From positions 28,836-92,835 of IMG/VR virus record IMGVR_UViG_651053022_000007: DNA of 64,000 nt; one strand, given 5' to 3'. The position numbers and the translations under genes are program-made. Under the pieces are notes generated by a model. It saw only the letters and a list, made by a program, of their open reading frames with translations. It had not been told where the DNA came from and did no database searches. Source of the DNA: a virus (lineage: Duplodnaviria; Heunggongvirae; Uroviricota; Caudoviricetes). Of the stretch, positions 37,698 through 45,753 are shown piece after piece; within the stretch, counting starts at the first letter, position 1; every line of letters starts with the position of its first letter.

Positions 37698-37716
37698 CGG
37701 TTGGATCACCTCCTTA
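37698..37716 (+). rRNA. 16S rRNA 3'-terminal 19-nt fragment (start of an rrn spacer fragment)
   Basis: CGGTTGGATCACCTCCTTA, followed by spacer with tRNA-Ile and tRNA-Ala. Confidence 0.6.
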
Positions 37717-37784
37717 CCTTAAAGAAGCGTACTTTGAAGTGCTCACACAGATTGTCTGATGAAAATGAGCAGTAAAACCTCTAC

Positions 37785-37861
37785 AGGCTTGTAGCTCAGG
37801 TGGTTAGAGCGCACCCCTGATAAGGGTGAGGTCGGTGGTTCAAGTCCACTCAGGCCTACCA
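37785..37861 (+). tRNA. tRNA-Ile (anticodon GAT)
   Basis: AGGCTTGTAGCTCAGGTGGTTAGAGCGCACCCCTGATAAGGGTGAGGTCGGTGGTTCAAGTCCACTCAGGCCTACCA. Confidence 0.85.
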
Positions 37862-37903
37862 AATTTGCACCGCAAATTTGAAGAGGTTTTAACTACATGT
37901 TAT

Positions 37904-37979
37904 GGGGCTATAGCTCAGCTGGGAGAGCGCCTGCTTTGCACGCAGGAGGTCTGCGGTTCGATCCCGCATAGCTCCACCA
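37904..37979 (+). tRNA. tRNA-Ala (anticodon TGC)
   Basis: GGGGCTATAGCTCAGCTGGGAGAGCGCCTGCTTTGCACGCAGGAGGTCTGCGGTTCGATCCCGCATAGCTCCACCA. Confidence 0.85.
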
Positions 37980-37994
37980 TCTCTGTAGTGATTA

Positions 37995-39193
37995 AATAAA
38001 AAAACGATATTGATTTCATCAAACTGCTCATCGTCCATTAACACTCCCGCATGCGTCAGCGCATCCAGCGGTGCTTTCAGGATATTGTCCAGGTCGCGAC
38101 GACGCTTATCCGGTGGCTCTGCAATCACCTTTATCGCCAGCCTTCCGGACAGGTTTAATTTCAGCCGCTGCTGGCGAACAATTAGCGCCACATCACGGCG
38201 ATAACGCTTTCCGGCCTCCGAGATGAAATACGTATTGCCATGACGTCGCCAGTAGGTATTCACCGTCGGCGGGTAAGGCAAAACAAATTCTATGCGTTCA
38301 GTCATACCTCCCAGGCCATGACCAATGATGTGATGCGGATCATCTGCCTGATTACCGCACGTCATGCATTTCTGCGTTTTTACCCAGCGCGTGTATACAG
38401 GCATCTCTTCCCGTTGTGGTTTCTGGCGCTGGAGATACTGAGCCGGAGACTCCGGATCAACGGCGATGCTTACTAACGTCTTTTCCTGGAGTGGGGGCTG
38501 TTGCTGGTGGACGTGAAGTGGCAGCGCAATATTTTTTGTGCGCTGCTTCAGTATGCTGGTGGCAGTCTGTTCTCCCGGTACGATGTCACTCTCACGGTAT
38601 ACGGAGCGGATTTTTTCCACCGGTAATCCCAGTGAACGACACAATACAGACTCCGGAAGCACATCAGCCACCTGATTGCAGACCGCCCACCAGGATAATT
38701 CGGCCAGCGATAACTCCCTCTCCTGCGTACCGCTGATTGCGTGACGGATGACGTCAATCATCCATGCTGACAAGTTTTGGTGAGCAAGTTGCTCAAGTGA
38801 TTCTGAGGTCTGGTCACACAACTGGTTGTCGCAGTGCCAGCACAACACCATTGCGCCGGTACCATAACGGTGAATGACGGTTTCACTGTGGTGATAATCA
38901 CCGTGTGGCCACTGGCAGGATTTAATATGGCGCAACAGCCAGTCAGACAGTGCACCAGCGCCGCCAGCAGCACGAATCACACGCTCATTGCTGAAAAATG
39001 GCAGTAATGATTTATCCTCCGCCAGCGGCTGGCGAACGGCAGGGACGACTCCGGATGGCAGGCCGCACATGCTTTTCGGTTCCGGCTCCACCAGCACTCG
39101 AGGATTATGAAATATCTGTATGGATTCACGGCCCGGCTTAAGGACCACCAGCCCAAGCTCAGGCACCAGAACAGGTCTAAGTAATACCCGCAC
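37995..39193 (-). pseudogene. YdfU-like (DUF968) :: RusA in-frame fusion remnant
   Basis: relative to intact copy at 61442..62860, about 62 codons at the YdfU/RusA boundary are missing (HGLGGM|TERIEFV) and rusA ends at EINIV; ORF 37889..39193 then reads through antisense tRNA-Ala. Confidence 0.6.
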
Positions 39194-39194
39194 G

Positions 39195-42967: not shown

Positions 42968-43023
42968 GACACGTCACCCCCTGAATCCCGGCGGTATTTC
43001 AGTGTCCGGTTCAGAAATGTGAT

Positions 43024-45093
43024 TCACGCAACGCGGGGTTCCAGGGTCACCCACTGTGGAATGAGGCCAAAATGCTGCGGCCAGAAGCTGATGCGCTGTT
43101 CATCAGGGACTATGGTGGCAACCAGTTGTTGCAGGCCAGTCTCCGGTGCACAGGCCGAAGAGGTGGTGTTCTGAGCATCATCTAACGGGATTTCATCGGT
43201 CATAATGGCAGATTGCGCTTCGCGTGATTGCTTAAGCCACCATTTAATGGTGTCCCGATCAATGACTCCGCCAGCAGTTTCCAGATCGATAGTCTTACTA
43301 AATTCCGGTCCCATATCTCCGGTTTGCGGATCGAAAAATATTGCATCTATTGAGATAATCGGGGCATCAGGATTTTTTCCCATGGTTTCAAGGTCAATCA
43401 TCAGATGGTGCCACAACCTGCTGGTGGATGTGCTTTTACGATGACTGTTCACCTTAATTAAGGGATTTGCTGTCTCGCCTATTTCATTATTGTCATTGGC
43501 ATGTTGATCGCCTTCGGTGCACTCCTTGTTCGGGAGTCCGGCATTTTCTATTTCCTCTGGATCTTTTTCCCGGGCTTCATCCTGGCTTTCTTCGTTGAAT
43601 GTCTCCTGGTAGGTTGCGTCACCCATCACTGCGCCACAATCAGGGCAGTTACCACCACCAGTCTGATTGCATGCGGTACAAACTTTTTCCTCTTCCTGTT
43701 GCACGACTGGTTCAGGTTGTTTCGTTTCTGGCTCGTTTTGTAACGCATTTTGGCTGTTTTGTTCCGCTTTTTGGTCGTACTGTTCCGTTTCTGACTGGTT
43801 CTGGTGCACAGAATCGCGGGTTTCAATCCCCTTCACCCATTTCGGATCATTCGGGTCGCTAATCCCTTCAACAAATTCACCACGTGATGCAGCGAGCAAC
43901 TTATTAGCGTCAGGCTGGCTGATACTGGCTGCCTGCATAATTTTGTTTACTTCGTCAGCGGTAACTTTTACCAGGTCTGGTTGTGCGGTCGTGTCAGATG
44001 CATCAGTATTTTGTTGTGAACCTGTGTATGTGCCGTTTTTGCGGGCAAAATATTCTTCTTTCGTGATTTCAGTTGCCCCGGCAGCCAGCGCCTTATCCAG
44101 ACCAGAAAGTTTGTTTGCGCGACCGTATTTTTCGCCATCCTTGTCGGTGAAGAGGAAGTAGAACGGCCCCTCACGCTCTACAGATGGTTCGACTTCCACT
44201 TTGCATTCGGTTTTTTCGTTGTCCGGAATTGCCGTTTCCACTGCATCAGTTTCTGGTACTGGCGACGAGAGAGTATCAGTTGCGCTCTGATTTCTTCCTT
44301 CATCTTCAAACACGCCCTTTGTAGTCAGGTATTCAGTAATGTATTTGTTCAGTGCCACAGGGTCTTTGTGAATGTCGATCGGACGTTCACGGACAAGGCC
44401 AAAAATAGTCTGGCGGTCGTAGCGAAGGGCATCAGGCTGTTTGCGCATTGATGCCGAGATACGCTTCCAGTCTTCGCGGTCGTTGTCGATAACTTCTTTT
44501 TTTGCCCAGCGATGGATGCTGCCGTCAATGTTTCCGGCATCCACATCACCAGGCCAGAGAGCGTAGGCCAGTTCGTCATCCAGTGTTTTCCATGTCTGCT
44601 TGTATTCGCGATGAATGGCAGCAATGACCGGGCTGATTTTTCCTGTTGAATTTTCAGTGTACTGTTGATTGGCTCTGGCGCGGGCGAGATCAACAACAGA
44701 CGTGTATTTTCCGGTTTCCTTGCGTTCACCTTCACGACGTTTTTTCCAGATGCGCATCTCTGCCTGAATTTCGGGCCATTTGGCACCAGGCTTACATTTA
44801 TGCTTAACCCACCCGATGGCATGCAGCTTAAGCTCCGGATACATGGCGTTAACTTCTGGCATTTTCATCAACGCTTCAACGATATGTCCGTCGAATGTTG
44901 CCATGTCTTCCTGCAACAATTCCTGTGCGCTAATAACCATATCAACGGTGATGTTTTCACATGTGTCGAACTTAACCATGACAGCGTTCTGTACTTCAGG
45001 GGCCAGCTTGTCAAAAGTGACGTTCATCGGATCGGATTCAGTCTCAACCGGGACAAAAGAAGCAGACTCCTCATCCCAGCGGTTTTCCTGCAT
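43024..45093 (-). CDS. chimeric exonuclease ORF: RecE-like central region plus DEDD 3'-5' exonuclease domain
   Basis: 689 aa; KLLAASRGEFVEGISDPNDPKWVKGI and CTACNQTGGGNCPDCGAVMGDATYQETF match RecE middle region; C-terminal IDLETMG exo-I-like motif. Confidence 0.45.
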   Translation of the reverse strand: MQENRWDEESASFVPVETESDPMNVTFDKLAPEVQNAVMVKFDTCENITVDMVISAQELLQEDMATFDGHIVEALMKMPEVNAMYPELKLHAIGWVKHKCKPGAKWPEIQAEMRIWKKRREGERKETGKYTSVVDLARARANQQYTENSTGKISPVIAAIHREYKQTWKTLDDELAYALWPGDVDAGNIDGSIHRWAKKEVIDNDREDWKRISASMRKQPDALRYDRQTIFGLVRERPIDIHKDPVALNKYITEYLTTKGVFEDEGRNQSATDTLSSPVPETDAVETAIPDNEKTECKVEVEPSVEREGPFYFLFTDKDGEKYGRANKLSGLDKALAAGATEITKEEYFARKNGTYTGSQQNTDASDTTAQPDLVKVTADEVNKIMQAASISQPDANKLLAASRGEFVEGISDPNDPKWVKGIETRDSVHQNQSETEQYDQKAEQNSQNALQNEPETKQPEPVVQQEEEKVCTACNQTGGGNCPDCGAVMGDATYQETFNEESQDEAREKDPEEIENAGLPNKECTEGDQHANDNNEIGETANPLIKVNSHRKSTSTSRLWHHLMIDLETMGKNPDAPIISIDAIFFDPQTGDMGPEFSKTIDLETAGGVIDRDTIKWWLKQSREAQSAIMTDEIPLDDAQNTTSSACAPETGLQQLVATIVPDEQRISFWPQHFGLIPQWVTLEPRVA

Positions 45094-45109
45094 ATATTCA
45101 GCATCCCAG

Positions 45110-45281
45110 GAATCGAGGGCAGGGCGGGGTATACCGGGTTTATCCTCGCAGACAAGAAATTTATAAGCGCAGTCCTGAGCAGCCGGATAATGTTTGAATC
45201 GAGGGCAGGGCGGGGTATGCCAGGTTTATCCTCGCAGACAATAAATTTATAAGCGCAGTCCTGAGCAGCCGGATAATGTTT
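45110..45281. repeat. tandem direct repeat, 2 x 86 bp
   Basis: units 45110-45195 and 45196-45281 with 3-4 mismatches, just upstream of the 43024..45093 start. Confidence 0.5.
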
Positions 45282-45573
45282 TTTCGGTTTTAAACGTTTT
45301 GCTTTTGGTATACGTCATCGCGGTGAATGTGCCGTCCTGGTTGGGAAACACGCCGTACACCAGAGATTCGTTGTTGCCAAGATCGATAGTATCCATGTTG
45401 ACCTCATTTCCCCTTAACGCCGGGGTAGCGGAACAAAAACCTGCTGCATAGTTATTAAAGTTGATTCAATTTTCAGCTTGATCCAGATTTTTAAAGAGCA
45501 AATATCTCAAACATCACCCGAAGATGAGTTTTGAGATATTAAGGCAGGTGACTTTCACTCACAAACCAGCAAG

Positions 45574-45649
45574 TGGCGTCCCCTAGGGGATTCGAACCCC
45601 TGTTACCGCCGTGAAAGGGCGGTGTCCTGGGCCTCTAGACGAAGGGGAC
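45574..45649 (-). tRNA. tRNA-Glu (anticodon TTC)
   Basis: reverse complement reads GTCCCCTTCGTCTAGAGGCCCAGGACACCGCCCTTTCACGGCGGTAACAGGGGTTCGAATCCCCTAGGGGACGCCA. Confidence 0.85.
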
Positions 45650-45734
45650 GTATCAGTCTGCTTCGCAAGACGCCTTGCTTTTCACTTTCTATCAGACAAT
45701 CTGTGTGAGCACTGCAAAGTACGCTTCTTTAAGG

Positions 45735-45753
45735 TAAGGAGGTGATCCAACCG
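45735..45753 (-). rRNA. 16S rRNA 3'-terminal 19-nt fragment (reverse orientation)
   Basis: TAAGGAGGTGATCCAACCG; same 19 nt as at 37698-37716. Confidence 0.55.

Follow-up and report, generated by a model that had tools for sequence, protein, structure and literature searches.

How do two spacers of ribosomal RNA (rRNA) operons (rrn), each with transfer RNA (tRNA) genes and a short 3' tail of the 16S gene, come to lie among the genes of a prophage? The question is raised by a 64,000-nt stretch of a Caudoviricetes record (IMG/VR virus record IMGVR_UViG_651053022_000007, positions 28,836 to 92,835), referred to here as the window, in which a spacer with tRNA-Ile and tRNA-Ala genes and a second one with a tRNA-Glu gene are both surrounded by phage sequence. 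A preliminary description, made from the sequence alone, offered three options: a rearrangement mediated by rrn operons, the capture of host tRNA genes, or a chimeric assembly. Our analysis leads to the conclusion that the embedded spacers are not a real feature of the phage and are an artefact. Positions 35756-64000 are almost certainly a run of short contigs from a de Bruijn graph with k = 39, placed one after the other without spacers of N, and not one DNA molecule.

Identity and boundaries of the two rrn spacers

ARAGORN and Rfam place tRNA-Ile(GAT) at 37785-37861 and tRNA-Ala(TGC) at 37904-37979 on the plus strand, and tRNA-Glu(TTC) at 45574-45649 on the minus strand, in agreement with the preliminary description. 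The 16S 3' tail that it reported in front of the tRNA genes is also present, as both sites carry, upstream of the tRNA genes and on their strand, the sequence CGGTTGGATCACCTCCTTA, which is the 3' end of 16S rRNA and is followed by the rrn spacer. The two pieces have the following extent.

37699-38002, plus strand: Ile/Ala-type rrn spacer piece, 304 nt, with 18 nt of the 16S 3' end and both tRNA genes
45465-45752, minus strand: Glu-type rrn spacer piece, 288 nt, with 18 nt of the 16S 3' end and tRNA-Glu(TTC)

The preliminary description had proposed to align the spacers to host rrn operons, and both match normal operons, with 100% identity in Escherichia coli strain 4/0 of sequence type 131 (ST131). 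Alignment to all seven rrn operons of E. coli K-12 identifies them as the standard Ile/Ala and Glu types, and the K-12 spacers of the same two types are near-identical to the window pieces. The Ile/Ala piece is a 100% match over its 304 nt to a strain 4/0 operon (positions 202-505 of the locus L010), where the spacer sits between a full 16S and a full 23S gene. The Glu piece is 100% identical over its 288 nt to normal rrn operons in thousands of genomes, one example being strain 4/0 positions 2968156-2968443, where a tRNA-Glu and a 16S rRNA are annotated. The rrn comparison for ST131 is made up of the seven K-12 operons and three strain 4/0 matches, and not of all seven ST131 operons. Both spacers carry the tRNAs that an ST131-like E. 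coli host normally has in its rrn spacers.

Compared with normal E. coli rrn spacers, the window pieces have neither the 16S nor the 23S gene and are missing the 3' part of the spacer, because the contigs stop at graph branch points. Neither spacer has complete 16S and 23S flanks in the window, because the contigs are truncated, and Rfam finds no 16S or 23S gene at gathering score anywhere in the window. The proposed rearrangement between rrn operons, which should break inside the long homologous rRNA genes and leave full or hybrid operons, finds no support here, with only 18 nt of 16S and no 23S at either site and no such junction in closed genomes.

The preliminary description based its argument for a common mechanism on a boundary of 19 nt of 16S shared by the two sites. 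Such a common boundary is present, far beyond chance, and the exact shared stretch is 40 nt long instead of 19 nt (37697-37736, the reverse complement of 45715-45754). Of these 40 nt, 18 are 16S sequence and 20 are the beginning of the spacer, and the remaining two ("TC") belong to the neighbouring pieces. The supposed nineteenth 16S base (C) and the T preceding it are the final two bases of the adjoining phage pieces. On the left, that piece closes with a 38-mer of phage sequence ending at 37698. The identity of "TC" at the two sites is a chance match with a probability of about 1/16.

The positions of the spacer ends follow from where the two spacer types differ. From within 16S onwards the types have the same sequence until base 37737 in the Ile/Ala piece and 45714 in the Glu piece, which is A in the Ile/Ala type and C in the Glu type, and both spacer 5' ends lie exactly 38 nt before this first differing base (18 nt of 16S and 20 nt of spacer). 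At the 3' end of the Glu piece, TTTGCTCTTTAAAAATCTGGATCAAGCTGAAAATTGAA is the first stretch of 38 nt in which the Glu and Ile/Ala types converge; the base in front of this merging 38-mer (TTTGCTC...ATTGAA) is A in Glu-type and T in Ile/Ala-type spacers. The Ile/Ala piece stops directly after TAAATAAAAA, and strain 4/0 has rrn copies with A5 (3795266-3795364) and with A6 (242726-242825), both in the same genome, and therefore the graph branches at this 3' end. All four spacer ends are predicted by a 38-nt rule.

The identical 5' boundaries at two sites are also what one would expect if a phage had captured the tRNA genes of host rrn spacers site-specifically at the 16S 3' end, by an RNA-processing/complementary DNA event or at a recombination hotspot. 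Lambdoid prophages do carry tRNA genes, and genuine ones are found in the window at 58681-58931. We nevertheless regard such a capture as having hardly any chance of being correct, since the boundary lies exactly 38 nt upstream of the first differing base, the same rule also bounds unrelated phage pieces, the nineteenth "16S" base belongs to the neighbouring piece, and the 3' ends too fall on graph branch points. In addition, no phage record was found with a 16S tail and spacer joined to these flanks, nor any isolate or phage genome with the same spacer-phage junctions. The more general suggestion of host tRNA capture by a prophage is not borne out either, as the spacer flanks are not adjacent in any finished genome and the junction is without a phage record at the Ile/Ala site, the one searched. 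A polymerase chain reaction primer site, an RNA-processing site or a toxin cleavage site behind the 5' boundary was considered too, and was rejected because this boundary stands exactly 38 nt ahead of the first differing base and the 38-nt rule holds for the phage pieces as well.

Short pieces of two prophages around the spacers

The window contains 76 maximal exact repeats, 17 of which are exactly 38 nt long, with three more at 39 nt and one at 40 nt, the longer ones fitting a chance extension of 38-nt words. All members of the 38-nt spike lie beyond 35750, and the repeat scan of the window yields no repeated 38-mer before 35885. Two parts can be distinguished.

1-35755, no strand assigned: contiguous prophage region, the last part of one long contig, without internal 38-mer repeats
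35756-64000, both orientations: at least 30 short pieces in a row, the smallest of 86 nt and the largest of about 7.6 kb, with no spacers between them

The region 25001-35755 is a 100% match in ST131-like genomes (strains 1446, AZ 189 and AZ 190) and forms a single piece that ends at 35755; 6995-25000 matches strain 4/0 at 99.9%, and the first 25 kb belong to the same prophage region as 25001-35755. The second part is composed of "bubble arms" between prophage paralogues, the rrn spacers, tail-fibre fragments and other repeats, deriving from two or more prophages. Its tiling alternates, in both orientations, between a prophage of strain EC958 (2.13-2.18 Mb, here L001) and a prophage of strain 4/0 (1.42-1.46 Mb, here L009), a pattern that goes on to position 64000. 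The segmentation of 35756-64000 uses these two reference prophages and is partial, many overlap partners lying outside the window. Around the rrn spacers it gives the following pieces.

37081-37453: piece of L001
37454-37698, plus strand: left neighbour of the Ile/Ala spacer, ydfC-dicB intergenic region, from L009, 245 nt
38003-38305, minus strand: right neighbour of the Ile/Ala spacer, 5' fragment of the RusA gene, 303 nt, 100% match to L001 37598-37900
38306-39962: piece of L001, with 171 nt skipped
39963-43034: piece of L009
43175-45194: piece of L009, reversed
45195-45280: piece of L001, reversed, 86 nt
45281-45464, minus strand: 23S-side neighbour of the Glu spacer, DUF1391/ydfB fragment, 184 nt, 100% match to L001 44376-44193
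45753-46612, minus strand: 16S-side neighbour of the Glu spacer, fragment from inside the tail-tip gene gpJ of L001, reversed, 860 nt

The left neighbour of the Ile/Ala spacer is a 100% match to strain 4/0 1437244-1437488, and both prophages contain the 38-mers at its two ends. The right neighbour is one arm of a bubble between two prophage copies, both of its terminal 38-mers being present in L001, in L009 and again in the window at 61502-61539 and 61767-61804. On the 23S side of the Glu spacer, the terminal 38-mers of the ydfB fragment (45281-45318 and 45427-45464) are common to both prophages, and on the 16S side the gpJ fragment is 99.9% identical to L001 15268-14408, the whole gene occupying positions 13855-17250 of that locus.

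Isolated 38-nt words are thus found at the ends of phage pieces as well as of spacers. For 14 of 20 non-spacer piece ends tested, as first drawn, the terminal 38-mer is present in both L001 and L009, and the number rises to 15 once 45427-45464 is taken as an end; the baseline is about 10% of the 38-mers in 37081-46982 being common to the two prophages. Unrelated 38-mers directly abut at seven joins, namely 37080|81, 37453|54, 37698|99, 45280|81, 54982|83, 55276|77 and 63427|28.

The two reference prophages, at 1.44 Mb and 2.16 Mb, lie 0.7 Mb apart in strain 4/0, the closest closed genome. The Ile/Ala spacer is flanked on the left by sequence of the 1.44-Mb prophage and on the right by sequence of the 2.16-Mb prophage, and the Glu spacer by a ydfB-region fragment on one side and an internal gpJ fragment on the other, neither pair being what a simple insertion would leave. 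From the tiling it therefore follows that, for each spacer, no finished genome has the source loci of the two flanks next to each other.

The junctions were searched for in other genomes, where a closed genome was counted if one place in it covered 80% or more of the query. None of 5,426 closed E. coli genomes covers at least 80% of a query spanning either spacer site, and in all of them the flanks and the spacer match separately. The same threshold is reached by no closed genome for 25001-50000 or for 47000-58000. The Ile/Ala junction, the only one searched there, is not found in 50,697 phage records, and the matches of phage records to the query break off precisely between 37698 and 37699 and between 38002 and 38003. 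Three contig collections (genome, viral and metagenome) contain no copy of a 47-mer that spans the left Ile/Ala junction. Phage records that do carry a 16S tail with spacer were inspected and rejected; they are bacterial contigs filed wrongly, short records without annotation, or a jumbo phage of Aeromonas that has its own Ile/Ala tRNAs, and none of these records has the flanks seen here. The preliminary description is correct that the spacers lie amid phage genes in the literal sequence, but the tiling and the absence of the junctions elsewhere indicate that this context is not physical.

Taken literally, the sequence would describe a lambdoid prophage that was broken into fragments and joined up again, by illegitimate or microhomology-mediated repair for instance, together with two rrn spacers and functional host tRNA genes. 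The sequence is continuous and has no Ns, one open reading frame (ORF) crosses a join, and Q, RusA and DUF968 follow each other in some neighbouring pieces roughly as they do in the EC958 prophage. Such real joins are still very improbable. At least 30 independent joins would be needed within 28 kb, each at the edge of a 38-nt word common to paralogues, and we know of no biological process that puts joins exactly at the edges of shared 38-nt words. The spacer flanks moreover come from loci that lie apart in every finished genome, the junctions occur in no closed genome, the Ile/Ala junction is in none of the phage records and contig collections searched, and allelic arms of one locus stand in tandem, such as the sok/hok copies at 39962|39963.

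Source of the joins

Contigs of a de Bruijn graph break where paralogues diverge or converge, and each of them retains k-1 nt in common with its graph neighbours. The 38-nt words at the piece ends therefore correspond to the k-1 overlap of contigs with k = 39. From 35756 onward, the window is accordingly best read as a short-read de Bruijn assembly of an ST131-like E. coli whose short contigs were placed end to end. The assembler would cut contigs wherever near-identical repeats diverge or converge, keeping 38 nt in common with the graph neighbours, and the seven rrn operons would collapse, with the Glu and Ile/Ala spacer types emerging as small separate contigs. Each of these spacer contigs would start with the 38 nt that precede the first base distinguishing the two types, and the neighbouring "phage genes" would be other small repeat contigs, namely bubble arms between paralogous lambdoid prophages. 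We observe directly that the 38-nt rule holds, how the pieces tile and that the junctions are missing elsewhere, while the type of assembler and the stage of joining are what we infer. No capture, rearrangement or site-specific mechanism is needed, the identical boundary being a k-mer effect.

This picture is in line with published experience. Short-read drafts of ST131 genomes leave rRNA operons, prophage loci and insertion sequence (IS) elements unresolved (PMC4134206), and in de Bruijn assemblies the ribosomal DNA repeats collapse or branch (PMC6009695). The window resembles the repeat-derived mini-contigs of such assemblies in having constant 38-nt end words common to paralogues, and in consisting of isolated rrn spacers of 288 nt and 304 nt without 16S or 23S next to prophage, tail-fibre and tRNA repeats. 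It differs from usual mini-contigs in that the contigs are butted together without an N spacer or a record break and read as one molecule.

The common mechanism put forward for the identical boundaries is accordingly retained as a shared cause, but one of a technical nature, an overlap rule of 38 nt that bounds unrelated pieces too. Among the three options of the preliminary description, chimeric assembly comes closest, the evidence pointing to separate short contigs laid end to end. Flanking phage DNA from a separate contig, which the description had named as the observation that would speak against its picture, is what the joins appear to represent.

Several observations weigh against the contig explanation. 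A few pieces are not pure unitigs: one has a common 38-mer in its interior (39340-39377), and the second prophage does not contain the 38-mers with which 38306-39962 and 45195-45280 begin, which presumably points to a third paralogue or to repeats having been resolved by the assembler. The window also shows no N spacers or contig headers, the joins being deduced from the pattern of the pieces and not read from the record.

The stage at which the contigs were joined leaves room for a variant, in which the chimera was already present in the deposited record, as a pseudomolecule or scaffold with its gaps removed, and did not arise when a multi-contig genome was cut. The partial collinearity with the reference prophage (Q, RusA, DUF968) could reflect a reference-guided ordering, and the arms of bubbles adjoin each other. 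Against this, the 47-mer of the Ile/Ala junction is in none of the three public contig collections, and the chimeric protein that results from the joins (see below) is missing from the index of products of called genes. Both absences favour joining at the cutting of a multi-contig genome. Pieces shorter than 200 nt are also present (86 nt and 184 nt), which are unusual in deposited records. A chimera in the deposited record is therefore possible, though we consider it rather unlikely; it is a sub-variant of the contig explanation and leaves the biological verdict unchanged. An ordering of the contigs by length was considered and rejected, the piece sizes not being monotonic.

Other features at the joins and genuine phage tRNA genes

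The joins also create features that would otherwise be taken for biology, the clearest one being an ORF next to the Ile/Ala spacer.

37889-39193, minus strand: chimeric ORF of 434 amino acids, composed of a DUF968 part, the N-terminal part of RusA and spacer sequence

The preliminary description noted that an ORF containing RusA reads through the first spacer, and this ORF indeed runs through DUF968, RusA and the spacer in one frame. Pfam matches DUF968 at residues 160-299 and RusA at residues 306-397 of the one polypeptide, which consists of DUF968 short of 57 codons at its end, 101 codons from the start of RusA and 38 codons of spacer sequence. In the EC958 annotation, DUF968 and RusA are two separate genes, and no gene on record has exactly this product. 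The chimeric ORF is the product of the joins 38305|38306 and 38002|38003, which are in frame by chance.

Rfam reports two tandem "sok antitoxin" matches on the minus strand, at 39788-39959 and 39960-40122. The pair consists of one hok/sok locus from the prophage L001 and one from the prophage L009, brought together at 39962|39963, and both copies carry the same 38-mer (39925-39962, identical to 40088-40125). The tandem sok duplication at 39788-40122 is artefactual. Further downstream on the plus strand, an ORF of 1092 amino acids for the R subunit of a type I restriction enzyme (HsdR, 50437-53715) reads through a tRNA-Arg(ACG) gene (53599-53675, plus strand), which starts right after ...aaatttcccgatg. 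The tRNA-Arg(ACG) gene is a multi-copy tandem gene in E. coli, and the read-through is probably another contig join.

The region 47000-58000, in which this ORF lies, is covered by a closed genome in a single place to at most 36%. It includes fragments of tail-fibre and tail-fibre-assembly genes, with a gp37_C-domain ORF at 47912-49105 and a Caudo_TAP ORF at 49108-49641, and some of its sequences match thousands of plasmid records and are probably IS-like. A match to the small RNA STnc100 lies at its end (57880-58069). The content of 47000-58000 is consistent with more repeat contigs.

The long contig ends at 35755, directly at an element resembling repetitive extragenic palindromes or bacterial interspersed mosaic elements (REP/BIME; Rfam naRNA4, 35757-35833), so that the large contig breaks at a dispersed repeat. 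A direct repeat with an offset of 94 nt follows the contig end (35754-35790, identical to 35848-35884). The contiguous region 1-35755 has adjacent matches to isrK and the C4 antisense RNA (11991-12176, plus strand) and a tRNA-Arg(TCT) gene (30982-31058, plus strand), and looks like an ordinary intact prophage.

Genuine tRNA genes of a lambdoid prophage are found on the minus strand at 58681-58931, within the piece 58233-63044. They are a tRNA-Arg(TCT) and a tRNA with a CAT anticodon, the latter annotated as tRNA-Ile in EC958 and in strain 4/0. In their vicinity are methyltransferase, Q, RusA and DUF968 genes, and the stretch is collinear with prophages of both EC958 and strain 4/0, with 99.2% identity to the latter. 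The tRNA clusters of lambdoid prophages are located downstream of the Q antiterminator gene and before the lysis genes, and they resemble the window spacers in that tRNA genes stand next to Q, RusA and DUF968. The genuine phage tRNAs, however, are present in many genomes and have no 16S tail, whereas the spacer tRNAs of the window have no conserved phage junction.

For the use of this record, the adjacency of sequences beyond 35755 is unreliable, be it as gene fusions, tandem duplications, "embedded" tRNAs or inverted repeats; the DUF968-RusA fusion ORF, the tandem sok pair and the read-through from hsdR into tRNA-Arg are examples. Concatenated windows of this kind can be flagged cheaply and automatically by a spike in the number of exact repeats that share a single length, which is 38 nt here. 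Biologically, the two embedded spacers are without consequence: nothing has been captured or rearranged, and their tRNAs are the ordinary rrn-spacer tRNAs of ST131-like E. coli.

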